From Candidatus Saganbacteria bacterium (lineage in GTDB: Bacteria > Margulisbacteria > WOR-1 > JAKLHX01), in assembly GCA_026387835.1 (NCBI GenBank), contig JAPLKZ010000010.1, forward strand, positions 236,379 to 268,378: a stretch of 32,000 nt of DNA. The letters run 5' to 3'. Both the position numbers and the translations under genes were made by a program. Positions 6,225 to 32,000 of this stretch are shown one piece after another. Numbering within the stretch: position 1 is the stretch's first letter; each line of letters begins with the position of its first letter. The notes beneath the pieces were generated by a model. That model saw only the letters and a program-made list of their open reading frames with translations. It had not been told where the DNA came from and made no database searches.

Positions 6225-6791
6225 TTATCTCAAATCCTCGATAAGCCGGACCGTGTATTCGTCGCCTCGATCCCCCGGAGGGAAACTGCGGCGGCCAGTT
6301 ACTCCAAGTTGACAAAGATAAAAATAATTGCCGAAATAAATACTTGTTGTCCATTCCCAATTTCTTCCGGATAGTTTGCATTTGACTTTTGTAACAGCAT
6401 CGAACCATTCTTCACTGGTCGGGACCCTAAATCTTCTCCCTGTAATCTCGCTTAACCATTTAGAATATGCCCGGCCGTCATTCAGGCTTAAATGTCCCGC
6501 CATTTCTCTTTGACTTGCCCTGGCAAGAATATCCTGTAAAAGTCCCGCGTTATTGCCAATAATTTCGTATTGTGCGCTTCTAACAAATTGTTTGAGCTGA
6601 TCTGTTGTGAGCTCGTCTTTCATCATTCTAAAAGGCATTCCGGGAACTTTTGTGAACCGATGGCTTTCTATGAACTTTCTGAAGTTTACACCATGAGCCC
6701 ACTTTCGGCTGATAGGTTGGTCTGGCCGCGACAATCCCAGCATGCTACTTCTTGTCCGGACTTCCGCAGCGCTTCCGATTTTCATCATCAT
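6225..6791 (-). CDS. Small FGE-sulfatase/SUMF1-like domain protein (paralog 1)
   Basis: 188 aa, no signal peptide. KVPGMPFRMMKDELTTDQLKQFV, SLNDGRAYSKWLSEITGRRFRVPTSEEW, NWEWT and a C-terminal VRLIE follow the order of FGE-sulfatase (PF03781-type) motifs. SD AAAGGAG precedes three consecutive ATGs. Confidence 0.6.
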   Translation of the reverse strand: MMMKIGSAAEVRTRSSMLGLSRPDQPISRKWAHGVNFRKFIESHRFTKVPGMPFRMMKDELTTDQLKQFVRSAQYEIIGNNAGLLQDILARASQREMAGHLSLNDGRAYSKWLSEITGRRFRVPTSEEWFDAVTKVKCKLSGRNWEWTTSIYFGNYFYLCQLGVTGRRSFPPGDRGDEYTVRLIEDLR

Positions 6792-6888
6792 TTTTCTCCT
6801 TTCGATATTTTTGCCCAGTCCTCATCCGATTAAACTAGGGTGGCATTTTCATCCGAATACATATCGAACAGAAATATGGGGAATTTCA

Positions 6889-7452
6889 TTATTTAACTTC
6901 TTCGATAAGTCGGACCGAGTAGGGGTTGTAGCGGACTTCTTCATGGTGGTTGCCGCGGTTTTCGTAGCCTCGGCAGCGAATAAAGAAGTAGTTTCCTATA
7001 AAAGGAGTGTCCGTCCACTCCCAATTGTCTCCGGATAGTTTATCTCTGACTCGCATCGTGGCATCTGACCATTCTTGTTCGGTCGGGACCCTAAATCTTC
7101 TTTCGGTCATTTTGCTTAACCATTCAGCATATGCCCTGCCGTCATTCAGGCTCAAAAATGTTGCTGTTCTGTTTTGTTCTGCTGCGTCAAGAACTTTTTT
7201 TAAAGCTCCAGCGTTATGGCCTGTAATTTCGCATCCTGAGATATCGACGAATGCTTTAAATTGCAAGATGGTGAGCTCGCTTTTCATTATTCTAAAAAGC
7301 ATTCCGGGGACATCAATGAAATTGTGGCCTTCCATGAACTTTTGAATGTCTATACCAGGGGGCACCGTTCGGCCGACAGGTTGGCCAGGCCGCGACAACA
7401 TCAGCCTGCCTACTGTCATTACTTGACCTGCGATCCTCCTGATTATTGCCAT
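6889..7452 (-). CDS. Small FGE-sulfatase/SUMF1-like domain protein (paralog 2)
   Basis: 187 aa. By eye, roughly half of positions are identical to the 6225-6791 product (DVPGMLFRIMKSELT, SLNDGRAYAEWLSKMTERRFRVPTEQEW, NWEWTDT, VRLIE). SD AAAGGTG is 7 nt from the ATG. Confidence 0.6.
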   Translation of the reverse strand: MAIIRRIAGQVMTVGRLMLSRPGQPVGRTVPPGIDIQKFMEGHNFIDVPGMLFRIMKSELTILQFKAFVDISGCEITGHNAGALKKVLDAAEQNRTATFLSLNDGRAYAEWLSKMTERRFRVPTEQEWSDATMRVRDKLSGDNWEWTDTPFIGNYFFIRCRGYENRGNHHEEVRYNPYSVRLIEEVK

Positions 7453-10645: not shown

Positions 10646-12193
10646 ATGAGTTTTATGGCACTTGTTTATACGATACTGGCGGCTGTTGTATTATTCGGCT
10701 TTGGCATCGCGTATCTTGTCCTGCGCAGGCAGCTTGCCGAACAAAAGGTGAGGATAGCCGAAGAGAGCGCGAAAAAGATACTTGAGGACGCGAAAAGGGA
10801 GGCTGACACAAAAAGAAAGGAAGCCATCATAGAGGCAAAGGACGAGGCTCTCCGCATGAGATCGGAATTTGAGAAGGAGAGCAAGGAACGAAAATCCGAG
10901 CTTCTTTCTTTTGAAAAAAGGCTGATGCAGAAAGAAGAGCATCTTGACCAGAAAGAGCAGCAGATAGAAAAGAACGAGACCGCGGTAAAGGCCCGGACCG
11001 AAGAGGTCGCAAAGATAAGGGAAGAGCTGCAAAACGCCCTGAATAAGAACGTGGTGGAACTCGAAAGGGTCGCGGGCCTTTCGAAGGACGAAGGCAAAAG
11101 GATACTTCTCCAAAATCTTGAAAAAGATATAGAAAAAGAAGCGTCGATCCTTATTAAGAACCGCGAAGAACAGGTAAAAAAAGAAGCCGACAGAAAAGCA
11201 AGGGAGATACTCACGACCGCCATTCAAAGGTGCGCCGTGGACCACGTCGTAGAGACGACGGTCACGGTCGTCGAGCTGCCGAGCGATGATCTCAAAGGCA
11301 GGATAATCGGAAAAGAAGGCCGCAATATAAGGGCTTTCGAACAGGCTTCCGGAGTAGACCTGATAGTCGATGATACTCCCGGCGCCGTGATCCTTTCCAG
11401 CTTTGACCCGCTCAGAAGGGAGACCGCCAAGCTGACGCTTGAAAAACTGATCGTGGACGGAAGGATCCATCCTGCCAGGGTCGAAGAAATGTACGAAAAA
11501 TCCAAGCAGGAACTTAAAGTCGCTATGTGGGAATACGGCGAGCGCGCCGCACTTGAATGCGACGTGCACAACCTTCCTCCGGTGCTCATACAGCTCCTCG
11601 GCCGCCTGAGGTTCAGGACAAGCTACGGGCAGAACGTCCTGACACATTCCATAGAGATGGCAAAGCTCTCCGGCATGATAGCCGCGGAGCTCGGGGTTAA
11701 CATCAGGCTGGCAAAAAGGGCCGCGCTTCTTCACGATATAGGAAAAGCCATAGATCAGGAGATCGAAGGGACACATCCTAAACTCGGCGCCATGTTCGCG
11801 CAAAAGGCCGGAGAATCCCCCGAGATCGTACATGCCATCATGGCCCACCATAACGATGAAGAACCCAGGACAATAGAAGCCGTGATCGTCCAGGTGGCGG
11901 ATACGATATCCGCCGGCAGGCCCGGAGCCAGGCGCGATACGCTTGAAGCTTATATCAAGCGCCTTGAAAAACTTGAATCGACCGCGAACTCCTTTGAAGG
12001 CGTTGAAAAGACCTACGCCATACAGGCCGGAAGGGAAGTCAGGGTGGTGGTAAAACCCGATAAGATCGACGATACGACCTCGGCCAAGCTCGCCTATGAC
12101 ATAGCAAGGAAGATCGAACAGGAACTCGAGTATCCCGGCGAGATAAAGGTGACGGTGATAAGGGAGACGAGGAACACGGAAGTGGCAAAATAG
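10646..12193 (+). CDS. rny: Ribonuclease Y
   Basis: 515 aa. N-terminal TM helix, a long charged coiled coil, a KH domain ([17 protein letters not shown]) and an HD domain ([10 protein letters not shown]...LHDIGKA). SD AGGAGGG is present. Confidence 0.93.
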
Positions 12194-19294: not shown

Positions 19295-20419
19295 ATGTCC
19301 GACGCTAATCCTATCATGCTGAATAATTATGCCGGCAATATTGTCGCGCCCGCATCTGCCGCAACACGGGCAATAAGGCCTATGGGCATTTCCACTGTCG
19401 AAGACGCTTTGAATATCCTTAATCTGGTAAACACCGGCGGCGAAGTGCTTGATGTCAAATCTCTTGGCAAAGATAACGCCACGCTGATAAGTATCGCCTC
19501 GGAAATAGTCAAAGCCAGGAAAAACGGATCTCCGGTCCAATTCGAGAACGGAAGGATCATGATGTCAAAAGAACTTTTTGGAGCGATCGTCAGATCAGCC
19601 GAGAATACATCTAATGACGCTTCGCAGATGGGCAGATCTAAATTGACCGGCCGGAACGAGAGCTCGGGAGCGGCCCAAAAAAGTTCCGGCGCTGTCTTAA
19701 AGAACTCTTCACAGCAAAATATGCCGATGTTCGCGCCTCCTCCCCCGTATTTTGAAATGAAAAAAAGAAAAGAAAAAACTAACAGTCCTAAAGTTGCCGG
19801 CTCGGCGACTGTCAAAGAAAGGCCCGATGATGATATGGTGCCGATGCTTTCGGCTTCGCAGGCTTATTACATCCTGATAGACATCGTCCCTCCCGGAGGC
19901 GGCAGGTATGTCATGCACTTGAGGGAGAAGTTCGAGTTCCAGCCTGAAGAGAAAAACGAGCTTGAGAAAGGCCTTGAAGAGTTCTGGAGGGACTTTGGCA
20001 ACGACATATCTGTCAATGCAAGGCACACCAGCATCGTCGTAAAACCTAAGATACTGATCGGGAACCTGGTCAATTGTGAAGTATCAAAAAAACTTGTATT
20101 TGTCTATGTGTCGCAATCTACAAAGGAAAAGCTTTCAAGGGGAGCTTTGATCGCTTCATCGGACCGGGTAACAATAAGACCGAGCAAGGGTAACGTCACG
20201 ATCGACCTGAACAACAAAAAGATCCTCGATCTTATCTTTAACATGCAGACAACAATATCCGACAGCGGAAAAATGCCTGTCCGGGAAGATGCCGACGATC
20301 CTTTGCCGCGATCAACATCCGCAACTATACCGGAGCAGTCTGCCGTTATGAACCCGTTCTCCAGCCCGTTCAACAGATCCCGCATAACGGGCAGGCTCAC
20401 AACAGCGTTCAGACACTGA
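19295..20419 (+). CDS. Hypothetical protein, no recognisable domain
   Basis: 374-aa ORF. AAAGGAG lies 9 nt upstream of the ATG. Two ordered-looking regions are separated by a low-complexity S/G/Q/P/K-rich linker (about aa 95-170). The last 11 nt overlap the convergent mfd 3' end. Confidence 0.6.
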   Translation: MSDANPIMLNNYAGNIVAPASAATRAIRPMGISTVEDALNILNLVNTGGEVLDVKSLGKDNATLISIASEIVKARKNGSPVQFENGRIMMSKELFGAIVRSAENTSNDASQMGRSKLTGRNESSGAAQKSSGAVLKNSSQQNMPMFAPPPPYFEMKKRKEKTNSPKVAGSATVKERPDDDMVPMLSASQAYYILIDIVPPGGGRYVMHLREKFEFQPEEKNELEKGLEEFWRDFGNDISVNARHTSIVVKPKILIGNLVNCEVSKKLVFVYVSQSTKEKLSRGALIASSDRVTIRPSKGNVTIDLNNKKILDLIFNMQTTISDSGKMPVREDADDPLPRSTSATIPEQSAVMNPFSSPFNRSRITGRLTTAFRH

Positions 20420-22664
20420 CTTGACTATCCGACTCTTTCACAAATTTTTCTATCCGTGACAATATTTCTTTTTCCGAGGACCCTGCGATGCCGATAAGAC
20501 GTTTTTCGCTCCCCAGTTCGATAATAAGATCATTGTTTTTTTGAGTGATTTTTTTTATCCCTGCGCTTGAAGCGGATATCTTTATCCTGACAATTTCTAA
20601 CATGTTCACTGCTTCTAACGGGAGGTGCCCGAACCTGTCGACAAGCTCGTCTTCGAGGTCTTTTACCTCTTTGAAATTATCTGCAAGGTTCAGCCTTTTG
20701 TAGACGGCTATGCGCTCGACTTCATCCTCGATAAAATGATCCGGGATAAAAGCATTTATTTTTAGATCTACTAAAGTCGTGTGCTTGATCGGCGTTTTTT
20801 CGCCTTTAAAATGCGCTGCGGCCTCTTTTAGCAGATCGCAATAAAGATCGGAGCCTATAGCAAGCATGTGGCCGTGCTGCTGGCTGCCCAGGACATTCCC
20901 GGCACCTCTTATCTCAAGGTCCCTCATAGCGATCCTGTACCCGGAACCCAGGGCGGTAAATGATTTTATTGCCTGAAGCCTTTCCAGGGATCTTTCGGTC
21001 AGGACGCTGGTTTCGCGGTAAAGCAGGTATGCAAAGGCCTTTACGTTTGACCGGCCCACCCTCCCGCGCAGCTGATACAGTGTTGAAAGACCGAATTTAT
21101 CCGGATTTTCGATGATTATCGTGTTGACATTGGGGATGTCCAGCCCCGATTCGATGATCGTCGTTGACAGAAGGACGTCATATTTCCCGTCGACAAAATC
21201 CATCATTATCCGCTCGAGCTCATCCGGCTTCATCCGGCCGTGAGCGACGGCCACGGAGATTGAGGGAAGTATTTTTCCGAGTTTTTTCGCTGTGTCACCG
21301 ATCTTTTCCACGCTGTTAAAAACATAAAAGACCTGGCCGCCCCTTTCTTTTTCCTTTTCGATCGCTTGTTTCACGGTGCTTGCTCTCCAGGGCAGCACGC
21401 AGGTCTCGATCATGGACCTTCCGGGAGGAGGGGTCGTGATCAGGCTCATATCCCAGATGCCTGAAACCGCCATATAAAGGGTCCTTGGAATAGGAGTCGC
21501 CGAAAGGTTTAATACATCGACATTCTTCTTTAATCTTTTTATTTTTTCTTTGTGCGCAACGCCGAACCTCTGCTCCTCATCTATTATCAGAAGCCCCAGG
21601 TCTTTGAATTTAACATCGTTCTGCAGCAGCCGGTGAGTGCCGATGATCACGTCTATTGAGCCGGACTCGGTCTTTTTCAAAAGCTCTTTTTGCTCTGAAT
21701 GGCTTTTGAACCTGGACAGGACCTCCACCGCGAAAGGGAAAGGGGCAAAACGGGCCTGAAACAGCCGGGAATGCTGCTGGGCAAGGATCGTTGTCGGGCA
21801 AAGGAAGCAGACCTGCTTTCCAGAGGAGGCGGCTTTGAACGCTGCTCTTAGGGCAACTTCGGTTTTGCCATAACCCACATCCGCGCACAGCAGGCGGTCC
21901 ATCGGCTTATCGGATTCCATGTCCTTTTTCACCGCTCTGACCGCTTCTGTCTGGTCCGGAGTATCTTCATACGGGAAAGAGCTTTCAAGTTCTGCCTGCC
22001 AGGCATCGTCTGGAGGAAAGCTATGTCCGCTCCCGGACTTTCTTGAAGAATATGTTTCCAGAAGTTCTTTTGTCATGTCACGGATAGACTTTTTCGCCCT
22101 GCGCTTTATAAGCCTCCATTCGCTCCCGCCCAAACTGTTCAATCTTGGAATATGATCGCCCGGCACATTGTATTTTGAAATAAGATTTATTTGCTGGACC
22201 GGTATATATAAACGGTCGTCACCTGCAAATCTTAAATACAGATAATCGGATGAGACGCTGTCGACGGTCTGTTTGTCTATTCCCTCATATATGCCGATGC
22301 CGTAATCCTTGTGTACTACCGCATCGCCTTTCCTGTAATCGGCATAAAACTTTTGCGGAACGGCCTTTTCTGCCTGCACTTTGAACCGTCTTCTTGGTAT
22401 ATGCTCTCCGAAGATCTCCCTGTCCGAAAAAAGGGCTATCCCTTCCTTTGGAAGATGAAAACCCTGAGGTATCTCGCCGTGGACGATCCTGATGCTTTCT
22501 TTTAAAAGCCCGGCATCAATAAAAAGTTCCTTCAAGCGCGAGTCCTGCTTGCTTATGATAAAAGTCTCTTCCCTGCCGGCTTTAAGATCGTCGATGAACG
22601 GTTCGATATTCGGACGCAAACCTGCATTCAAAGTTGAAGGCCCCTTCATTCCTCGGAAAAGCAT
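20409..22664 (-). CDS. mfd: Transcription-repair coupling factor Mfd, C-terminal portion (RNAP-interacting/CarD-like domain, SF2 translocase, TRCF domain)
   Basis: CarD-like GDAVVHKDYGIGIYEG, helicase motif I DVGYGKTEVALRAA, DEEQRFG, SATPIPRTL, QLRGRVGRS, and a C-terminal TRCF-like region. The frame opens only after a TAA at about 22665-22667. Confidence 0.85.
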   Translation of the reverse strand: MLFRGMKGPSTLNAGLRPNIEPFIDDLKAGREETFIISKQDSRLKELFIDAGLLKESIRIVHGEIPQGFHLPKEGIALFSDREIFGEHIPRRRFKVQAEKAVPQKFYADYRKGDAVVHKDYGIGIYEGIDKQTVDSVSSDYLYLRFAGDDRLYIPVQQINLISKYNVPGDHIPRLNSLGGSEWRLIKRRAKKSIRDMTKELLETYSSRKSGSGHSFPPDDAWQAELESSFPYEDTPDQTEAVRAVKKDMESDKPMDRLLCADVGYGKTEVALRAAFKAASSGKQVCFLCPTTILAQQHSRLFQARFAPFPFAVEVLSRFKSHSEQKELLKKTESGSIDVIIGTHRLLQNDVKFKDLGLLIIDEEQRFGVAHKEKIKRLKKNVDVLNLSATPIPRTLYMAVSGIWDMSLITTPPPGRSMIETCVLPWRASTVKQAIEKEKERGGQVFYVFNSVEKIGDTAKKLGKILPSISVAVAHGRMKPDELERIMMDFVDGKYDVLLSTTIIESGLDIPNVNTIIIENPDKFGLSTLYQLRGRVGRSNVKAFAYLLYRETSVLTERSLERLQAIKSFTALGSGYRIAMRDLEIRGAGNVLGSQQHGHMLAIGSDLYCDLLKEAAAHFKGEKTPIKHTTLVDLKINAFIPDHFIEDEVERIAVYKRLNLADNFKEVKDLEDELVDRFGHLPLEAVNMLEIVRIKISASSAGIKKITQKNNDLIIELGSEKRLIGIAGSSEKEILSRIEKFVKESDSQVSV

Positions 22665-23418
22665 TTAATTCGAGGACCGTTTTCCCCGAGGGTTTTTTTA
22701 TCCTGGCATCTGCGCTTCCGGCTTCATCCATAAGTATCACGGTGTCATTTTTCATATTTTTATGGAATTCTTCTTCTTTTTTTTCTCTTACCGGCAGGAT
22801 CTCGATGTTCTCTATCAAGCGTATAGACCTCTGGGTGACCGTGTCAAACTCCCTTATCGAGGCTGCCTTGTCGTCGGAAAATTCTATCCTCACTGCCCGC
22901 CGGTCTTTCAAGAAGACATCGATTATCCCTCCTCTTACCGAGAACTCGCCGCTGTCCTCCACCATAAAGACCCTTTCATATCCTATGCCCGAAAGTTTTT
23001 TGATGAGATATTCGGTATCGATCCTTTCCGCCTTGGATATCCTGACAGTATCATCAAGAAGGCTGTCTTTTTTGTATGTCTTTTTGAACAGCGCGTCCTG
23101 CGTAGTTACGATGATCGACTTCTCGCCTGATAACATTGAAAACAACGCCGCCAGGTTCTCCGGCAAGTCATCGTTGGAAAAAAAATAGACCGGCTGTTTT
23201 CCGTCTTCGGCAAATAATTTTACTTCGCAATATATCTGTTCCGCGATATCCGCATTTTTTGCCGCAAAGACGATGTCATAAGAAGACGTGTTTGAAAAAG
23301 CCGCCAGAAACGCGGCCTTTGCCGTCCCAAAGAGCCCGGAGACCTCGCCGGCCTTTAGAAGACGCTGGATGTCGATCTTTGAGGAGAGAAATTCTGTAAG
23401 TTTAAAAAGGTTCGCCAT
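22582..23418 (-). CDS. mfd: Transcription-repair coupling factor Mfd, N-terminal portion (UvrB-homology module), in a different frame from the C-terminal portion
   Basis: 278 aa. GYERVFMVEDSGEFSVRGGIIDVF...VRIEFSDDKAASIREFDTVTQRS matches the Mfd/UvrB domain 1b-2 signature. It overlaps the 20409-22664 ORF by 83 nt in another frame. Confidence 0.75.
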   Translation of the reverse strand: MANLFKLTEFLSSKIDIQRLLKAGEVSGLFGTAKAAFLAAFSNTSSYDIVFAAKNADIAEQIYCEVKLFAEDGKQPVYFFSNDDLPENLAALFSMLSGEKSIIVTTQDALFKKTYKKDSLLDDTVRISKAERIDTEYLIKKLSGIGYERVFMVEDSGEFSVRGGIIDVFLKDRRAVRIEFSDDKAASIREFDTVTQRSIRLIENIEILPVREKKEEEFHKNMKNDTVILMDEAGSADARIKKPSGKTVLELNAFPRNEGAFNFECRFASEYRTVHRRS

Positions 23419-24073: not shown

Positions 24074-26020
24074 TCATTCATTATCGAGGTATTTAGTTAA
24101 ATTTTTTGCTTCTATGACGGCTGTTTTCCCGTAACCTTTATTCCAGTCAAGAAGGTAATCGATCTTTTCCGTTCCGAAATCAGTCTTTGACAGGATTTCC
24201 ACGGCTTCCGCTCTTGTCAGGCCTCTTTTCGGCTCGAATCTGATTGAACTATTATCGATCAAACCTTTTTGCTTGGCGGCATCAATGTCATTGGCTGCCC
24301 AGCTTTTTTTAGAAACATCCTTGTAAGGTTTTTCCGTGACTTGCGGAGTATCAAGGCTGTCAAACCTGGAAGCGACCGTCACGCCTTCCATTCTGTTAAT
24401 ATTCTTATCGGGTTTAAAGGTCTTGTCCGGATAACCGACAACAAGGCCCATTTCGTTCGCGGCATCAACATATCTTGTCGCCCAGTCTGATTTATTAAGA
24501 TCTGGAAATATTCTCTTTTCTATAGTTTCCTTAATATCGACCCCGTTTGTCCTGACCAGCAAAGTCGCCAGCTCGGCCCGGCTCAGTATCCTGTTAGGCT
24601 GAAAAGTGCCGTCCGGATAACCTTCGGCAATTCCGGCGGTCGCTGTGTATTCTATGGGTTCTACTGCCCAGAAATCTTCCGTGACATCACTGAATGTCGC
24701 AAGCCTGATTATCCTGATCCTTTTTGATTCGAGGAGTACTCCGTTCTTGTCGTAACCTTCGACTACCACCAGTCTCTTTCCTGCTTTTTCAAGAGGGACT
24801 TTTGTCCTGAAAGTCTTGCTGCCGTCGACCGTGTCGAATGGGACAGGGATACCGTTCACCTGGATCTGATCGATGATCGGATGCACGATACCGGAAACTT
24901 TTACATAGTCCCTTCTTGTTATCAGTTTGTCCCTGGGTTTGATTATAGTTATATATTCGCGGTTTTTCTCCTCTTTTGGATCGTCCCCGACAAATGATAT
25001 CGAGAAGTAATGCGTCGCGTTCTCCTGTATGCCGCTGTACGGGTGATACGCATAATCAAACTCTATCCCTTTTAGCCTGAGGCCGATACCGTAAGTCAGA
25101 TTTCTGCCTTCGGTTATCCCGACGGTTCCCGGGACAGGATCCTGGTCGAGTCCCATCCTTATGGCAAGTATATCTATAGGCCAAAGTTCAGCTCCAAATC
25201 TCATCACGGCAGGTTTGCCGGACTGCAGGTAAAGATCGCTGTCCGCGGCAAGGTTGAGCCTGACCGGCGAAGCGATCAAAGCTTTTCCCTGTCGGCCCAA
25301 AAGGTTGACCTTTGTCCCGATCTTTGTGGTTGACGGAATGCCTTCTTCAATACCGCTTTTATAAGTAATGGCTCCGCCCATGTTCGCCGGAAGGATGTTC
25401 TGCTGGTTCAATCCGAAAGAAAGCCAAGAATTCGGAGTGTAAAGGATGCCGAGATCAAGGTCCACTCCCCTGCCGTTACCGGAAGAAGCATCGTCTGTTC
25501 CCGAAGCGGTCTGGTCAAAGTATTTAAGATTAGCACCGAGATATATGTTCTTTCCGTAATCGGCGGATATCACTTCCAGAGGAAATCCGTAAGATAAGAA
25601 CAGGACGTTGTTTGAATACCCTCCGATAGAAGTCGGGGTCGGATAATGTGTGGACGAAGCCGCATTGCTTCCGAGCACCCATATATTGTCCACCCGTGAG
25701 CCGACATAACCAAGCCCTATAGAACCAACCTCAAGAGGATATGTTCCGCCCAGTACCGCATAACTTACGTCACCCATAAGGCTTGAATACATGCTTGTGA
25801 GTTTTGGAGTTTTCATCCTTCCGAGCCCGGCAGGGTTCATGAAGATGGATTCGGCATCTTCCGCGATCGCCACATATGTTTTCCCCATTCCGAGCGACCT
25901 TGCGCCGACGCCTACATATGACGGGTCAATAGCAGAATAAGTCGCCGCAAAAAGCATTGCCTGCGACAGGATCGCTGTCACAATAATTATGTATGATATA
26001 TATTTAATCAGTCTTTTCAT
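24074..26020 (-). CDS. Outer-membrane beta-barrel protein (PorV/FadL-like N-terminal signature) fused to an Ig-like domain and three C-terminal SLH domains
   Basis: Signal peptide MKRLIKYISYIIIVTAILSQAMLFA. GARSLGMGKTYVAIAEDAESIFMNPAGLG resembles the N-terminal signature of FadL/PorV-type barrels. Alternating beta-strand pattern runs to ...THYFSISF (about aa 350). Three SLH repeats follow: FSDVTEDFWAVEPIEY..GYPDGTFQP, FPDLNKSDWATRYVDAA..GYPDKTFKP, YKDVSKKSWAANDIDAA. ATG 26020 overlaps the upstream stop (ATGA). Confidence 0.7.
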   Translation of the reverse strand: MKRLIKYISYIIIVTAILSQAMLFAATYSAIDPSYVGVGARSLGMGKTYVAIAEDAESIFMNPAGLGRMKTPKLTSMYSSLMGDVSYAVLGGTYPLEVGSIGLGYVGSRVDNIWVLGSNAASSTHYPTPTSIGGYSNNVLFLSYGFPLEVISADYGKNIYLGANLKYFDQTASGTDDASSGNGRGVDLDLGILYTPNSWLSFGLNQQNILPANMGGAITYKSGIEEGIPSTTKIGTKVNLLGRQGKALIASPVRLNLAADSDLYLQSGKPAVMRFGAELWPIDILAIRMGLDQDPVPGTVGITEGRNLTYGIGLRLKGIEFDYAYHPYSGIQENATHYFSISFVGDDPKEEKNREYITIIKPRDKLITRRDYVKVSGIVHPIIDQIQVNGIPVPFDTVDGSKTFRTKVPLEKAGKRLVVVEGYDKNGVLLESKRIRIIRLATFSDVTEDFWAVEPIEYTATAGIAEGYPDGTFQPNRILSRAELATLLVRTNGVDIKETIEKRIFPDLNKSDWATRYVDAANEMGLVVGYPDKTFKPDKNINRMEGVTVASRFDSLDTPQVTEKPYKDVSKKSWAANDIDAAKQKGLIDNSSIRFEPKRGLTRAEAVEILSKTDFGTEKIDYLLDWNKGYGKTAVIEAKNLTKYLDNE

Positions 26021-28938
26021 TTCTTTATCACCCAAATTTTTGCCCTGCCGATCAACTTGCCGTCGCCAACGATCCTTGCCATGTAGATACCGTTGCTCGC
26101 AATGTCTCCGTAGTCATCTCTGCCGTCCCACATGAACTCGTTATATCCGGCTGTGGCAACGAAGCTTCTCTTTACGGCTATCCTGCCCGTAGTATCGAAC
26201 AAGTAGATGATTACGGTCGCATCTTTGCTTATGTTAAAGCCAAGCTTGGTGGTCTCAGCCAGCGGATTGAACGGATTCGGATAATTGAATGCGCTGCCTT
26301 CTATATAAAGTGTCCCGTCCGAAACTTTTAATTTTCTGGTAAACGTAGTAGAGTTGCCGGCTGGCGCGTCTTTTGCCGTAATTTTTAACGTAAACTCTCC
26401 GGCAGATATCGGGTCTGTCAGCGTCAATGTCATTAGCCCGCTGACGGGGTTGAAGCTGACAGCCGGGAGTGAAGTCGGAGAGAATGTAGAAATTGCCTCA
26501 ACAGTGATAGATGCCGCGTCTACGCTGACATTGTCGGTTATCGTAGCTTTGATAGTCGGCTTGGTTGCTATAAGGTCGCTCTCAAGAACTGTTTTTTCGT
26601 CGACCGTTACATCGCTGATGACAGGCGGTATGGTATCGGCCGATGTGAGTATTCCGACGGCACTGCCTGAATCCTTGCCGACAACGTCCGTCTCTATGCC
26701 GTCACCGTTATAAGCGGAAATACCGTACCAGTATTTCGTGTCAGGTTCGAGCCCGTCATCATTATATTCTTTGTCTTTGATGGAATCTTTTATTTTTATC
26801 CAGTCACCGGGAGTCCCCTTTTTATCCTTTGCCCTGTAGACGCTGTATTTGCTAGAGCCGCCGTCTCCCGCGTCCCAGGCAAACTTGATCGATGCCACCG
26901 TGGCTGACATCTTGTGCAGGTTCACCGGTGTATTTGCAAGGGTATACCGCGTCACTGCTTCTGTAGTGGCTGATGCACCGTCATCGTTATAAGCCGCGCA
27001 ATATCTTGTATACGGAGTGTTTGCGGACAATCCGGCCTCGTTCGCTTCCGTTAACGGCGAAGCAACGGTCTTCTTCAGGGCTCCCGCTCCATCGCTGATA
27101 TTGAAACCGGTCTCGTTCGTCGAATTCCTTGCCCACGTCCACTTGATCCCCGTAGTCCCTGTGGCAGTTCCCGCAAACGATGTTGGCGCTGCCGGCGGGT
27201 TCAATACCGTCGCTATAAGATAATCCACGTAATGCGGCGTCAGGCTTGTATTCTTGCCTGTATATACGAACTGGTAAGCGCTGATGTTCTTGTCAAAAAT
27301 ACCGTTGCCGTCAGTCGGGGTCCCGTTATCAAAATTCTGGACCAGTGATTTGAACGGGATCTTCACGAATTGCCATTCCGTGTTCTTTAGGCTGATCGCA
27401 GGCCCTGAATATATCTCGTGTGTCATGCTCCATGATCCATATGGAGAAACGTTGGTCGCTTCAAATACATCCAGTCTTATCGTATTATTAGTCCCGTCAC
27501 CTTTGAGCCAGAAGGCAAAAGCATTGGTAAGGATCAGGTTTTTGTTTGAAACAAGGTCCCCTTTCATCAGCCCGCCCCAGTCGCTTGAAAATGAATAAAG
27601 GATCCTTCTTGACTGCGCTCCGTTCTTTATGAACAAGGGATTAGTATTGAATACTGAGCTGCATCCGGTTCCGTAATTGTTATAAGCCGATACTTCCACG
27701 CCCTCGTAATTATCAATAAGGACAGACGTGCTCGGCCCAAAATCAATTGCCGTAAACCGGTCAGCGGCGGTGGACGGAGAAGTGCCTCCTGGAGTGACAA
27801 CGGTAATATCATAGGTGCCTGCGGGAAGGCCCGATGGGATGGTAGCCCTGATTTCCGTAGCCGAGTTGCTGATCATCGTCAAGGGAACAGTTCCGATCTT
27901 AACAGCTGTAGCACTTGACAGGTTAGTGCCTGTTATAGTGATATCGTTCGGCACGTCATTGTTCCCGCTAGTCGGTGAGATCCCTGTCACGACGGGAGAA
28001 AGTGAGCTGATGACCGTGAACTGGTCGGCCGAAGACGTGGCCGATGTACCGTAAGTATTCGTGACGGAAATATGGTAGACTCCGGGAGTTAGTGCTGATT
28101 GTATTACCGCATTTATAGTAGTATCGCTGATAACTGCGAACGTGCTTACTGGATCTGTCCCGATCTTTACCGAGCTTGCGGTGGCCAAATTAGTCCCTGT
28201 TATTGTAACTGGCGTGCCTGCCGTGTTAAGACCAAAAGTCGGTGAGACACCGCTGACCGCCGGTACGGGCACCGCGAGCACGGTGAACTGGCCGGAACTG
28301 TTCGCAGGTGACGTGCCGTCAGCGTTGGTCACTGTAATATAGTAAGTGCCCGGGGTAAGACCTGAAGGGACTCTTGCAATTATCTCCGTGCTTGAATTGC
28401 TGACTATCGTCATGCCTGTTGCCCCGACATTTACAGCTGTCGCGCCTGACAGATTAGTACCTGTTATAGTGACCGGGACTTCCGCATTGTTTATACCGCT
28501 GCTCGGGGTGATCGATGTCACGGCCGGCGAACTGGTGGAAATCACGGAAAACTGGTCTACCCAAGACGTCGCAGATGTGCCGTCAGCATTTGTGACCGTT
28601 ATATGGTAAACATTGGGGATAATTCCCGATTGTATGACTGCAGTTATGGTCGTGTCATTTACAACACTGAAACTTTGGACGGGAAATGAATCGATCTTTA
28701 CGGCGGACGTTCCGGTAAAATAAACTCCGGAGATCGTGACTTCGGTAGTCCCTGTATTTAAACCGCTTACCGGGCTGATAGAAGTGACCGAAGGGACCGT
28801 TCCGCCTACGACTCCTGTTCCGATCGTTATCCAGCTGTCGGAAAAAGAGGCCGGTATGGAAAAAAGCAGCAGCAGCGCTGCAATGACAGCCACTGCGACC
28901 GGTTTGCTGTATAATGATCTTATTTTTTTACTCAACAT
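26017..28938 (-). CDS. Large secreted surface protein: four IPT/TIG domains, a CBM-like beta-sandwich, two FN3 domains, an Ig-like region, and a C-terminal FlgD-Ig/T9SS-CTD-like domain
   Basis: 973 aa. Signal/anchor AVAVIAALLLLFSIPASF. Four units of about 88 aa of the type P.VTSISP.SG.N.....VTITGTNL.....V.IG........S.T.I.A.IPSGL.PG.Y.ITV.N..GTS. FN3-like segments (PAAPTSF..GIKWTW; PVNLHKMSATVASIKFAW...YSVYRAK...TKYWYGISAYN). C-terminus NYPNPFNP..TTKLGFNISKDATVIIYLFDTTGRIAV...FMWDGRDDYGDIASNGIYMARIV. Confidence 0.75.
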   Translation of the reverse strand: MLSKKIRSLYSKPVAVAVIAALLLLFSIPASFSDSWITIGTGVVGGTVPSVTSISPVSGLNTGTTEVTISGVYFTGTSAVKIDSFPVQSFSVVNDTTITAVIQSGIIPNVYHITVTNADGTSATSWVDQFSVISTSSPAVTSITPSSGINNAEVPVTITGTNLSGATAVNVGATGMTIVSNSSTEIIARVPSGLTPGTYYITVTNADGTSPANSSGQFTVLAVPVPAVSGVSPTFGLNTAGTPVTITGTNLATASSVKIGTDPVSTFAVISDTTINAVIQSALTPGVYHISVTNTYGTSATSSADQFTVISSLSPVVTGISPTSGNNDVPNDITITGTNLSSATAVKIGTVPLTMISNSATEIRATIPSGLPAGTYDITVVTPGGTSPSTAADRFTAIDFGPSTSVLIDNYEGVEVSAYNNYGTGCSSVFNTNPLFIKNGAQSRRILYSFSSDWGGLMKGDLVSNKNLILTNAFAFWLKGDGTNNTIRLDVFEATNVSPYGSWSMTHEIYSGPAISLKNTEWQFVKIPFKSLVQNFDNGTPTDGNGIFDKNISAYQFVYTGKNTSLTPHYVDYLIATVLNPPAAPTSFAGTATGTTGIKWTWARNSTNETGFNISDGAGALKKTVASPLTEANEAGLSANTPYTRYCAAYNDDGASATTEAVTRYTLANTPVNLHKMSATVASIKFAWDAGDGGSSKYSVYRAKDKKGTPGDWIKIKDSIKDKEYNDDGLEPDTKYWYGISAYNGDGIETDVVGKDSGSAVGILTSADTIPPVISDVTVDEKTVLESDLIATKPTIKATITDNVSVDAASITVEAISTFSPTSLPAVSFNPVSGLMTLTLTDPISAGEFTLKITAKDAPAGNSTTFTRKLKVSDGTLYIEGSAFNYPNPFNPLAETTKLGFNISKDATVIIYLFDTTGRIAVKRSFVATAGYNEFMWDGRDDYGDIASNGIYMARIVGDGKLIGRAKIWVIKK
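27736..28794 (-). repeat. Intragenic tandem repeat: two copies of a 531-bp two-domain (IPT-A + IPT-B) unit
   Basis: Protein repeats 1 and 3 resemble each other most, as do repeats 2 and 4. DNA at 27815 onward aligns with 28346 onward (offset 531 nt) with frequent identities, for example ...cctgttatagtga... in both. Confidence 0.7.
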
Positions 28939-29698
28939 TAAATACTTTTTCCTCGGTCTTTATTTTGTCTGCGCCATAATCAAACAATCCCAACATTTTT
29001 ACATTGCCCTTTGGAAGGTCCGTTTTGCCGCTGTAATCAATATTATATTCTTCATCGGGATATGTCATGAAAGAACCCGCTTTAAGGGTGTCCAGGAGCT
29101 TTCCGTCCGGACCGAGGACTAGAAATGTAGCTCTAACGTCCTGAAAAGTGTTGCCCGTATTTTTAACTTTTGAGCTGATCGTGAGGACCTCTGATGAACA
29201 TTTCGCGTCAAATGATTTTACCGACATGGCATGGTCCGCCGTGCCTTTCACCGAGACCCTGAAAGGCATTTCGATGTTCATATTTATGTTCAAAGTTATA
29301 TCCGAAGGCCCTTGAACGGTGCTTGTCCGGTATGAGTATAAAAGGCCGGAGGAATATCCGCCCTTTGCATCCTGGGGAACTGCTGTCCTGAACCTCAGGT
29401 CTTTTATACTTTTGGGGGGGATCGAAAATTTTTCTTCTTCGATCTTTGTCCACTTTGAACATGAATATTTCGCGGGTTTCCCGTCTTTGTCCAGCGAATT
29501 TACCATCCCGGCCGTCACATCGATCGCGCTGTCGGAAGTGTTCTCAAGGATAACTCCGCCGTTAAATACCTGCCCTTTTTCAAGATAAAGCTCTATCGAA
29601 GGCTGTCTTAACAAAAGCGCCGACTGGCAAGGAGCACTGATGATAAATATTACCAGTGCCGGCAACAAGATGTTTTTTAATATACTAATAACTTTCAT
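28928..29698 (-). CDS. Secreted two-lobed beta-sandwich (Ig-like) protein, possibly chaperone-like; function unknown
   Basis: 256 aa. Signal peptide MKVISILKNILLPALVIFIISAPCQSA. Beta-rich alternating pattern in two halves (SIELYLEKGQVFNGGVILENTSDSAIDV...; LTISSKVKNTGNTFQDVRATFLVLGPDG...). The stop overlaps the next gene's start by 11 nt. Confidence 0.5.
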   Translation of the reverse strand: MKVISILKNILLPALVIFIISAPCQSALLLRQPSIELYLEKGQVFNGGVILENTSDSAIDVTAGMVNSLDKDGKPAKYSCSKWTKIEEEKFSIPPKSIKDLRFRTAVPQDAKGGYSSGLLYSYRTSTVQGPSDITLNINMNIEMPFRVSVKGTADHAMSVKSFDAKCSSEVLTISSKVKNTGNTFQDVRATFLVLGPDGKLLDTLKAGSFMTYPDEEYNIDYSGKTDLPKGNVKMLGLFDYGADKIKTEEKVFNVE

Positions 29699-29723
29699 TA
29701 TTATACCTTAATAACCGATAACC

Positions 29724-29751
29724 GAAAGGGGCCGCTTAAACGGCCCCTTTC
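29724..29751 (-). terminator. Intra-operon stem-loop (attenuator or partial terminator) after the first gene of the surface operon
   Basis: GAAAGGGGCCG-(6 nt)-CGGCCCCTTTC forms a perfect 11-bp stem. On the minus strand it is followed by GGTTATCGGTTATT, which is only moderately U-rich. It lies 10 nt after the stop of the 29761-30816 gene. Confidence 0.5.
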
Positions 29752-29760
29752 TTATAAACT

Positions 29761-30816
29761 CTAGTTAGCCGTTCTCTGGTAAATGCCGATGTTGCATGAT
29801 TTGCTGCCAGGAGTAACGCCCACTCCGGTGGGCCATATTGCAATGAACTGCATATGGAGCTTTTCTGTCCTGTGACATGTATTATCAGCCGGAGACACAT
29901 AGACGAGGCCTACCTGGCTCCTTGCCGTTATCACAAAACCGTTGGCGTTGCTCGCGACTACTGTATTTCTGTCAGTATTGTAGCAGAGCGCGCTGTCGGT
30001 ATTTGCGGCCATCTGGACCTTTGTCTTTCCGGAGATCTGCGCATCGTTAGGCGGAACTGAAGACCCCGCGGTGCCGATTAAAAACGTCTTGATCTGGTCG
30101 GCTGTGGCACCCGAAATGAGAGGGAGCGTGTTGAACAAAACAACAGACCCGTTGCTTTTATATCCCCACTGCTTTTCGGGGGTCCCGTTCGGATCATCGG
30201 ACCATGAAAACCATCTCATTGTCGAGAGTCTGGGATCAAGCACTGTTCCCGTGGCCGCCCCTGCCGTTCCCGTAAGAACATCATTGTCGGCATAAGCATA
30301 TACCGTCCACTGGTAATTGGCCAGATCCCAGTAAGGGGCCTGTATCGTCAATCCTGTCTCGTAGAACATATTGACATCTGTTCCTGTAAGATAAGTCGAC
30401 GGTTTTGACGCTTCAGGGGATCCCGCGCCATCAGCCGGGTTTATGGCATCGCCCTTTACCCAGACCGAGGGGAACGGCGATGAAGCGGTCAGCGGAAATA
30501 ATTTGTATGTTCCCGCATGATTAAGTATCGCCGAGGTCTTTCCCACTATACTTGTTTTTACCACCGATGTCGTACCGTTCAGGGTATTACCAAAAACTGT
30601 ATTGGCTTGGTCCGCAAGCTGAAGATTGGAAATTGTAAGGTTGAACATAGCCGGCGCAACGGCAAAAGCCTGGAAACTCCACGCGCCGTTCGTGTATCCT
30701 TCGGTCAACGCGGGGTAGTCTACCGGGATCCCTCCTGATCCCGCCGCCATGGCGGGAACAATGAATACCGCTGACATGACCGCCGCGCACACTATCGAAC
30801 AAAACACTTTCTTCAT
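29761..30816 (-). CDS. Secreted protein of unknown family (candidate major surface or fibre subunit)
   Basis: ATG 30816 has AGGAGG 7 nt upstream. Signal peptide MKKVFCSIVCAAVMSAVFIVPAMA-AG. The mature protein is rich in T/S/G/A/N and poor in K/R, with Cys residues near the C-terminus (NTCHRT...SKSCNIG). The ORF-track start at 30864 is upstream of the SD. Confidence 0.6.
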   Translation of the reverse strand: MKKVFCSIVCAAVMSAVFIVPAMAAGSGGIPVDYPALTEGYTNGAWSFQAFAVAPAMFNLTISNLQLADQANTVFGNTLNGTTSVVKTSIVGKTSAILNHAGTYKLFPLTASSPFPSVWVKGDAINPADGAGSPEASKPSTYLTGTDVNMFYETGLTIQAPYWDLANYQWTVYAYADNDVLTGTAGAATGTVLDPRLSTMRWFSWSDDPNGTPEKQWGYKSNGSVVLFNTLPLISGATADQIKTFLIGTAGSSVPPNDAQISGKTKVQMAANTDSALCYNTDRNTVVASNANGFVITARSQVGLVYVSPADNTCHRTEKLHMQFIAIWPTGVGVTPGSKSCNIGIYQRTAN

Positions 30817-30978
30817 AATTTTTCCTCCTTTCTTAATAGAAGTGATCAAAGACATCGCACACATTAAAAATCACCTGCCTTTCCTTGCAGAATAGTCTTG
30901 TTTTCCCTTCAATAATATATCGTCAAATATTATTGTGAATTTCACTCTTTTTTGTGTTACACAACAATTTCATAAATA

Positions 30979-31702: not shown

Positions 31703-32000
31703 ATGATCAAAGAAGGTAAAAACTGCCTGCTTGTCCAAACTACCGGGATAAAGCCTTTCAAGAGATGCACGTACTGCGAACGCAGGGTGACAGATTGTTT
31801 TGGTATACAGTTTTTTATCGTCGCTTTCGGCATAATAGGGTTGTTGCTCGTAATGTTCACTATTAGGGACCTACCTATACTGGCCATCGACATCACCGTA
31901 TTGATATTGATGATGCTTATCCTGCTGGGTATAATCGCCAGCCGCGAGACGAACGAGATCGTAGTCAATAACTTCCTCCTCAAGGAATTAAACGAAGAGC
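31703..32000 (+). CDS. Membrane protein, N-terminal part (gene continues beyond the window); possibly a sensor protein
   Basis: Frame is open from ATG 31703 (GGGGAGGA upstream) to the window end and is not in the ORF track. MIKEGKNCLLVQTTGIKPFKRCTYCERRVTDC is followed by two hydrophobic helices (FGIQFFIVAFGIIGLLLVMF; ILAIDITVLILMMLILLGII). Confidence 0.45.
   Translation, partial: MIKEGKNCLLVQTTGIKPFKRCTYCERRVTDCFGIQFFIVAFGIIGLLLVMFTIRDLPILAIDITVLILMMLILLGIIASRETNEIVVNNFLLKELNEE

Follow-up and report, generated by a model that had tools for sequence, protein, structure and literature searches.

A predicted PorV-family barrel fused to SLH domains and its CTD-bearing partner form a conserved gene pair in a Saganbacteria genome and its relatives, and may anchor surface proteins to the cell wall

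Introduction

In Bacteroidota, a surface protein that ends in a C-terminal domain (CTD) of the T9SS (type IX secretion system) can have a cognate partner, a FadL-family barrel fastened to the cell wall, that holds it. SprB binds SprF in Flavobacterium johnsoniae, and it has been proposed that PorP and PorE together tie non-mobile CTD proteins to the wall (PMC9143113). The genes for cognate CTD proteins and shuttles are genetically linked (PMC12618676), and the extracellular loops of PorV are the binding place of CTDs (PMC10994853). Here we analyse four minus-strand genes, A to D, in a 32,000-nt stretch of a Candidatus Saganbacteria genome (contig JAPLKZ010000010.1, positions 236,379 to 268,378; hereafter the window, numbered from its first letter). 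Gene C encodes a large secreted protein with a terminal CTD, and gene D encodes a predicted PorV-family barrel fused to SLH domains. On balance, and by analogy with the systems above, we favour the reading that C and D are a cognate pair for anchoring a surface protein, running from the cell wall through SLH, barrel and CTD to an adhesin.

The locus resembles PorE-PorP-PG1035 of Porphyromonas gingivalis and SprB-SprF of F. johnsoniae in that a CTD surface protein and a 14-stranded FadL-family barrel are encoded by linked genes (PMC9143113, PMC12618676). As in the PorE case, the complex would be tied to peptidoglycan, which for C and D is a prediction from sequence. In contrast to the PorP and SprF pairs, the CTD of C is of the type-A, PorU-PorZ kind and not of type B, and D scores as a member of the PorV/PorQ family. 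PorE is a separate OmpA_C lipoprotein, whereas the wall-binding part of D is of the SLH kind and is fused to the barrel. The host phylum also differs, being Margulisiibacteriota, and a T9SS translocon was not seen within the ~52 kb that were inspected (the window and 10 kb on each side).

A second likeness is to the PorU-PorV and PorZ-PorQ pairs of the T9SS attachment complex. D finds its best family and fold match in PorV/PorQ, and by sequence the closest solved relatives of the C CTD are the CTDs of PorU and PorZ. PorU and PorZ keep their CTDs, and in P. gingivalis as in F. johnsoniae porV has porU directly upstream of it. Unlike PorU and PorZ, C has neither a C25 peptidase (sortase) domain nor the PorZ β-propeller; unlike PorV and PorQ, D has an immunoglobulin (Ig)-SLH tail and misses the equivalog cutoffs by far. 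No sign of attachment chemistry with A-LPS (anionic lipopolysaccharide) was seen for C-D.

D can also be compared to the SLH-porins OmpM, SlpA and Slp, which tether the outer membrane in Terrabacteria. A canonical OmpM has a single N-terminal SLH domain, a coiled-coil stalk and a C-terminal porin barrel. D likewise combines an outer-membrane barrel and SLH in one polypeptide, but its barrel is N-terminal and of the PorV/FadL type rather than a porin, an Ig spacer stands where the stalk would be, and three SLH domains lie at the C-terminus, so that the canonical architecture is not reproduced. OmpM also differs from D in that D has a dedicated CTD partner gene. The taxonomic neighbourhood of the two is the same (Cyanobacteria, Margulisbacteria and Saganbacteria), and D falls within the operational definition of OmpM (bioRxiv 10.1101/2021.05.31.446380).

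Results

Gene C encodes a multidomain protein with a predicted terminal CTD

An earlier reading of the window, made from the sequence alone, had described A to D as four minus-strand open reading frames (ORFs), with an 11-nt overlap between B and C and an ATGA overlap between C and D. These coordinates and overlaps were confirmed (11 nt for B/C; 4 nt, ATGA, for C/D), and the same four products (351, 256, 973 and 648 aa) are present in the NCBI and the Logan gene calls. Each product has a Sec-type signal peptide at its N-terminus, as judged by eye. NCBI has a Candidatus Saganbacteria protein that is 100% identical to D under the name 'PorV/PorQ family protein'; it names C 'IPT/TIG domain-containing protein' and lists A and B as hypothetical. 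The Shine-Dalgarno sequences of B, C and D are weak or missing. The coordinates of the genes and their parts are collected in Table 1.

Profile matches show C to be a TIG/CBM-like/FN3 multidomain protein whose terminal domain is predicted to be a T9SS type-A-like CTD. The CTD model TIGR04183 matched aa 886-963 of 973, within the last ~90 residues, at 28.1 bits against a cutoff of 23. The CBM_11-like stretch scored 26.7 bits, just short of its cutoff of 27. The tail carries the motifs YPNPFNP and NGIYxxRIV and ends in GRAKIWVIKK; these three correspond to the conserved motifs of type-A CTDs. Cryo-electron microscopy of CTDs points to a conserved lysine (PMC10994853).

The relatives of this domain point in the same direction. 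Among 31 related CTDs, TIGR04183 matched 24, the C-terminal end of the PorU model matched 19, that of the PorZ model 12, and PF18962 matched 11 at E values up to 0.01. When a profile of the family was compared with the sequences in the PDB, the best match was PorU (6za2, residues 1056-1155; E 8e-8), followed by PorZ (5m11; 1.4e-6), while the gingipain CTDs, which are of the cleaved type, scored E values of 0.035-0.23 against the same profile. The T9SS-type CTD that the sequence-only reading had assigned to C is thus borne out by a TIGR04183 score above cutoff and by PorU and PorZ CTD relatives. Of the other families that it had named, SLH, four TIG and two fn3 domains were found as well, whereas the PorV equivalog NF033710 and FlgD_ig fell below their cutoffs.

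Gene D encodes a predicted 14-stranded barrel with an Ig spacer and a triple SLH module behind it

The same reading had also taken D to be a PorV-type barrel fused to SLH domains, and family profiles, structure prediction and fold comparison all support it. D passed the PorV_fam model NF033709 marginally: over aa 36-343 it scored 94 bits, where the cutoff is 90. The PorV2 equivalog model of NCBIfam was far under its cutoff. The SLH family PF00395 matched in three stretches with 114.2 bits (cutoff 20.8), and PF09136 (Glucodextran_B) matched the spacer under its cutoff, at 22.1 bits.

An AlphaFold2 (AF2) model of D, built with 47 homologues, had a pLDDT of 85, with values above 90 in the spacer sandwich. 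In the order of the chain it shows an N-terminal segment with the motif GARSLGMG...NPAGL, 14 long strands (aa 73-343), a β-sandwich (aa 357-439) and three SLH repeats. The motif is invariant or nearly so across the 47 homologues. In a Foldseek comparison with the PDB, the first matches were to PorV of the F. johnsoniae translocon, solved in complex with SprA (8gl6_F, E 2e-10, and 6h3i_F, TMt 0.66; TMt 0.64-0.66 overall), and the Sap SLH structure 3pyw came next (TMt 0.85). FadL and TodX ranked later, with TMt of 0.40-0.51. The SLH part also matched Sap SLH in an hmmsearch against PDB sequences (2.8e-21). Together, the model and the matches show D as a predicted 14-stranded barrel of the PorV/PorQ family, to which an Ig spacer and three SLH domains are joined. 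A barrel whose strands are even in number has both ends on the periplasmic side. With 14 strands, the Ig-SLH tail of D would therefore be placed to bind the wall.

The relatives of D number in the hundreds at 40-73% identity, and the named ones are nearly all from Margulisiibacteriota or Saganbacteria. A scan of genome contigs with D alone returned a Paenibacillus SLH sequence as its sole match.

The conserved unit is the C-D pair

The sequence-only reading had treated all four genes as one module. We compared 30 barrel loci including the window, of which 29 could be evaluated; a metagenome scan enlarged the set, and loci other than the window carry L numbers. An ORF ending in a CTD lies directly upstream of the barrel gene on the same strand in 24 of the 29, with gaps of -18 to +244 nt and often with an overlap. 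One further locus has such an ORF directly downstream of the barrel (L025), and another has a divergent CTD-like tail upstream (L024). No recognisable CTD was found upstream of the barrel in L023, and in two loci (L021, L026) the barrel has no adjacent CTD partner gene at all. In the upstream partners the CTD stops 0-5 residues short of the stop codon, and the passenger in front of it ranges from nothing to more than 3,300 aa.

The neighbourhood changes around the pair. In L008 and L010 (57% identity), the order A-like gene, B-like gene, TIG protein, CTD protein, D, pth, mfd is retained. L011-L013 (41-44% identity) have other neighbours and lack A and B, and the barrel is still preceded by a big Ig-repeat protein (TIG, Big_5, Big_9, cadherin, PKD or fn3) with the same CTD. 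It is the pair of C and D that is conserved as a unit, and not the operon of four genes. What stood of the proposed co-conservation is hence the C-D part, often translationally coupled; for A and B it failed outside the close clade.

The pair also occurs in a minimal form. In L031 (9534-10933), L034 (3864-5173) and L037 (9675-10906), the partner is a 109-aa protein consisting of a signal peptide and a CTD only, and its gene overlaps that of an SLH-less PorV-family barrel of 306-357 aa. Both the CTD and the barrel of these minimal pairs score above the NCBIfam cutoffs, the L031 barrel reaching 112.7 bits on NF033709. The neighbours of the L031 pair are the housekeeping genes rpsB, tsf, polA and relA. 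Some other pairs (L013, L020, L027, L038) have additional CTD proteins nearby that are not accompanied by their own barrel.

The identity matrices of barrels and CTDs are correlated (Spearman 0.49), a value reached by 0 of 2000 permutations. This co-variation fits inheritance of the two genes as a unit, but would look alike whether it stems from interaction or from a shared phylogeny.

Another C-terminal module also recurs near several pairs. It is ~100 aa long (...NINW[IT]S[IT]P...TDL...WD..TQ...PG.GY.V...W.P) and ends TIG/fn3 proteins encoded just before the CTD protein (L008 3631-6258; L010 5524-6495; L011 3892-6798; L013 2667-6389 and 6413-8077; L097 11893-14526). It has no Pfam match and is absent from the window.

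Genes A and B are a clade-specific addition to the pair

Genes A and B were seen beside C-D in a close clade alone (the window, L008 and L010), and the pair A + B is a clade-specific add-on to C-D. L096 and L097 end inside or just after their TIG genes.

A is a secreted, β-rich protein with a high content of T, A, G, S and N and belongs to a lineage-restricted orphan family. In a collection of 5.8 billion proteins this family amounts to 28 clusters; each is 44% identical or more, and no cluster has been given a functional name. A has no Pfam or NCBIfam match and no sequence match in the PDB. The AF2 model of A, mostly β, is of low quality (pLDDT 56), and a fold comparison with it found no match, pilin and S-layer folds included. 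The alignment of the family is strongly conserved. The Shine-Dalgarno of A is AAAGGAGGA, 7 nt before the ATG. The sequence-only reading had called it the strongest in the window; it is indeed a strong AGGAGG, though not the only one, since AGGAGG also precedes starts at 10646 (rny) and ~2864. The hairpin reported behind A was found too, with a stem of 12 bp and not 11. Its 76-nt context folds at -27.3 kcal/mol (z -3.4 against shuffles). It has no U-tract, and a terminator scan made no call there. The hairpin might stop transcription in part or stabilise the mRNA, and its attenuator role is putative. Because of the strong conservation, the strong Shine-Dalgarno and the hairpin behind the gene, A is probably an abundant secreted structural protein.

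Two cysteines (near ...ALCYNTD... and ...NTCHRTE...) occur together in the A of the window and in two relatives (P0122, P0142). Both are missing from most other members of the family, and four members keep the second only. This pattern suggests an optional disulfide in an extracytoplasmic A.

B scored 19.2 bits on PF06030 (DUF916), below the threshold of 27.3, and its matches to PDB sequences were at chance level only. A word-index search for relatives gave two proteins, and an exhaustive phmmer search gave 332 representatives. Among 56 relatives that were scanned, PF06030 (DUF916/WxLIP_PGBD) was found in 35 (best 7.7e-12) and PF11797 (WxLIP_HBD) in five. On these profile matches, B is a secreted protein with two predicted Ig-like domains and a distant DUF916/WxLIP-like character. 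It is probably A's partner or assembly factor.

A and B by themselves are like the Csc/WxL surface-protein clusters of Firmicutes with their DUF916/DUF3324 (WxLIP) proteins: there, too, a two-Ig DUF916-like protein stands beside secreted surface proteins of unknown fold. The differences are that B stays under the Pfam cutoff and ends in a polar tail without a hydrophobic membrane anchor, that A has no WxL match, and that the host is a diderm.

A cassette with a paralogue of B was found in five loci (Table 1). It lies upstream of A in the relatives L010, L096 and L097, and occurs also in L098 and L099, which are of unknown lineage. The cassette consists of 3-4 small secreted proteins (165-346 aa), the B paralogue and a protein of 820-1080 aa with SdrD_B and CarboxypepD_reg domains and, in some cases, T2SS-T3SS_pil_N. 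The small proteins have a common C-terminal motif (...G.Y.T.I.FTMTE). In L096 and L097 the cassette adjoins GH26, CBM9 and ABC-permease genes. Such a module of subunits, DUF916-like protein and large protein may be where the A-B pair came from. We considered A as a relative of the small subunits and rejected this, because the A1 profile finds none of them.

Table 1. Positions of the features in the window and of the related cassettes
Feature	Sequence	Position	Strand	Basis
Gene A	Window	29761-30816	minus	ORF, 351 aa
Gene B	Window	28928-29698	minus	ORF, 256 aa
Gene C	Window	26017-28938	minus	ORF, 973 aa
C passenger: signal peptide, four IPT/TIG, CBM_11/CIA30-like, two FN3, Ig-like region (aa 1-882)	Window	26293-28938	minus	Pfam, NCBIfam
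C CTD, T9SS type-A-like (aa 883-973 and stop)	Window	26017-26292	minus	TIGR04183, CTD profile
Gene D	Window	24074-26020	minus	ORF, 648 aa
D N-terminal part: signal peptide, NPA-motif segment read as hatch, barrel (aa 1-343)	Window	24992-26020	minus	NCBIfam, AF2, Foldseek
D Ig-like β-sandwich spacer, Glucodextran_B-like, predicted periplasmic (aa 357-439)	Window	24704-24952	minus	Pfam, AF2
D three SLH domains, predicted to bind peptidoglycan or secondary cell-wall polymer (aa 440-648 and stop)	Window	24074-24703	minus	Pfam, Foldseek
Promoter-like site upstream of A (TTCACA-16-TATTAT, 10/12), putative function	Window	30912-30939	minus	consensus match only
Stem-loop between A and B, 12-bp stem, 4-nt UUAA loop	Window	29724-29751	minus	folding
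Cassette	L097	4687-9729		
Cassette	L096	4461-9903		
Cassette	L010	154-3367		
Cassette	L098	4752-12177		
Cassette	L099	1242-8730		

The surrounding genes and the search for T9SS components

The remaining genes of the window are housekeeping genes: recA, rny, ymdB, valS, ftsH, mazG, FTCD, mfd, pth, and genes for a bactofilin, an M23 peptidase, an aspartokinase and an aldolase. The 10 kb beyond its left end hold a TonB-dependent receptor, TonB, queA and tgt, and the 10 kb beyond its right end hold a two-component pair, parAB, gidB, BamA and TamB. The BamA and TamB region marks the organism as a diderm. In L094/L095 (14007-20369), parB, parA, gidB, BamA (Omp85 with POTRA) and a TamB-like protein of 1503 aa lie 4-10 kb past window position 32000. 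The operon may thus lie near the replication origin, beside outer-membrane biogenesis genes.

The sequence-only reading saw no other T9SS core gene, and this held when 10 kb on each side were added: none of sprA/sov, porK/L/M/N (= gldK/L/M/N) and porU was found in the ~52 kb. Nor was any present among the precomputed Pfam matches for the called genes of L008-L013 and L096-L099. Two tandem minus-strand ORFs of ~188 aa each (6225-6791 and 6889-7452) match the same part of the FGE-sulfatase domain, and a third copy of 193 aa lies beyond the window (L100 8867-9448). The ORFs at 6225-7452 were considered as GldK/PorK and rejected, NCBIfam giving only weak matches of the SenA/EgtB type.

Two further observations concern the region of mfd. 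The gene (20409-23418, minus) is broken into two ORFs, of 278 and 751 aa, that overlap. Relative to the Logan assemblies L001 and L002 of the same population (99.87% identity, with an intact Mfd of 1006 aa), the window is 11 nt short at 22608-22614, probably through an error of assembly or a frameshift at strain level. Between mfd and mazG, a plus-strand ORF of 374 aa (19295-20419) has no Pfam or NCBIfam match; an unannotated gene stands in a similar position in L008 (15543-16571) and L010 (15483-16184).

Discussion

We read C and D as a fixed anchor because of the precedents set by PorE-PorP-PG1035 and SprB-SprF, by the linked shuttle genes and by the CTD-binding loops of PorV. The Ig-SLH tail of D would grip the cell wall from the periplasmic side, while the extracellular loops of its barrel would hold the uncleaved CTD of C non-covalently, by analogy with PorV and PorU, PorQ and PorZ, and PorP or SprF and the type-B CTD proteins. 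The predicted result is a fixed chain of wall, SLH, Ig spacer, barrel, CTD and a TIG/CBM/FN3 adhesin or glycan-binding stalk. A single polypeptide, D, would then do the job that PorP and the peptidoglycan-binding PorE share in Porphyromonas, using a Terrabacterial wall-binding module, and it would double as a tether between the outer membrane and the wall.

Several points weigh against this reading. The PorV_fam score of D barely exceeds the cutoff, and D fails the equivalog models of PorV (NF033710, 20.2 against 250 bits) and PorQ (NF033711, 28.7 against 220). For C, the Pfam model PF18962 (Por_Secre_tail) gives no match, and the FlgD_ig scores of 17-23 bits stay under the cutoff of 27. Among the 29 loci, several belong to genomes that are close relatives and are not independent, and six of the CTDs served as seeds of the CTD hidden Markov model. 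The side of the outer membrane on which we would place the CTD is taken from Bacteroidota structures alone. The model gives no route for C across that membrane; a wall-tethered, immobile barrel could not shuttle, and export by a T9SS may need another carrier. Lastly, the roles proposed for A and B draw solely on gene order and expression signals.

The question of export leads to two opposite views of the locus. It is possible, though we think it doubtful, that Margulisbacteria and Saganbacteria lack both the translocon and the motor of a T9SS and that the CTD and the PorV-like barrel are a free-standing two-gene module for surface display. The barrel, perhaps during its assembly by the β-barrel assembly machinery (BAM), would then bring the CTD partner that is co-translated with it to the cell surface and keep it in place, tethered to the wall through SLH. 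Conversely, the locus could be an ordinary T9SS cargo locus, with a full system (SprA/Sov, PorKLMN, PorU, PorZ) elsewhere in the genome, D as its PorV or PorQ and C as a cargo. We consider this unlikely. The CTD and the barrel do pass T9SS-related NCBIfam models, one paper states that CTD proteins and T9SS genes occur together and that species without a T9SS are also without CTD proteins (PMC11285876), barrel-less CTD proteins lie near the pairs of L013, L020, L027 and L038, and the part of the genome that was inspected amounts to only ~52 kb. That part and the Pfam matches of the related loci hold no core gene, however, and the T9SS has been described in reviews as confined to Bacteroidota or to the FCB group (PMC7463736, PMC12398890); we found no paper linking Margulisbacteria with a T9SS. 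A barrel fixed by SLH cannot shuttle cargo, and the 1:1 adjacency with translational coupling looks cognate rather than like one PorV serving many cargoes.

Two other explanations place the emphasis on D or on A and B. D could be mainly an envelope protein, either an OmpM-like tether or a FadL-type channel for hydrophobic compounds, with the CTD as a cap or subunit and the passenger of C incidental. The combination of SLH and barrel agrees with the operational definition of OmpM, and OmpM homologues have been reported in Saganbacteria and Margulisbacteria (bioRxiv 10.1101/2021.05.31.446380). CTD-only partners of 109 aa exist, the barrels of L021 and L026 adjoin no CTD gene, the FadL-type NPA segment is conserved, and D sits at a stable housekeeping position beside pth and mfd. 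Yet in structure PorV is a closer match to the barrel than FadL or TodX, long adhesin-like passengers are present in most partners, and the domain order is opposite to that of OmpM and the barrel type different. We regard this explanation as rather improbable when taken by itself; it overlaps with the anchor reading and does not exclude it. Least probable of all is a chaperone-usher-like operon for a fibre or S-layer, in which A would be the subunit that polymerises and B would act as its chaperone in the periplasm, while export and anchoring would fall to C and D. The likeness to chaperone-usher pili lies in gene order only (small subunit, two-Ig protein, large protein, barrel). What speaks for it is that A has a strong Shine-Dalgarno, a hairpin behind it and high conservation, and that B-like genes stand between small secreted proteins and large SdrD_B/pil_N proteins in L096, L097, L098 and L099. 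At E values up to 0.1, however, no PapD-chaperone or usher family of Pfam or NCBIfam matches any of A to D: B shows no PapD-type signature and its family resembles DUF916/WxLIP, contrary to the chaperone-like role first suggested for it, and neither C nor D matches an usher. Most C-D loci do without A and B, and the low-confidence model of A matches no pilin or S-layer fold. The chaperone-usher logic that had been extended to D falls as well, since its barrel is of the FadL/PorV type with an NPA segment, has 14 strands, not the 24 of an usher, and is too small for a folded subunit to pass; D as an usher or protein conduit was rejected on strand number and NPA segment. The cassette keeps alive a weak version of the idea that B is an assembly factor, in which D is not involved.

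Compared with the Bacteroidota systems, what is new in the anchor reading is that the same logic would operate in a sister phylum of Cyanobacteria, with SLH wall-binding fused to the barrel. Further differences are the one-to-one, translationally coupled pairing and the minimal, CTD-only versions. We found no paper on PorV-SLH fusions, on T9SS parts in Margulisbacteria or on PorV homologues outside Bacteroidota. The pair bears on the tethering of the outer membrane in Margulisbacteria, and surveys that count SLH plus barrel as OmpM may have included D-like proteins. It bears more widely on how uncultured diderms build their surface, on the origin of PorV/CTD recognition and on whether this recognition works without the T9SS machine. 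The 109-aa CTD protein with its barrel-only partner would be a compact system in which CTD-PorV recognition could be tested. If the pair does act independently of a T9SS, the CTD/PorV interaction would be older than, or independent of, type IX secretion, and diderms on the Terrabacteria side would have an unrecognised route for displaying proteins and tethering their outer membrane.

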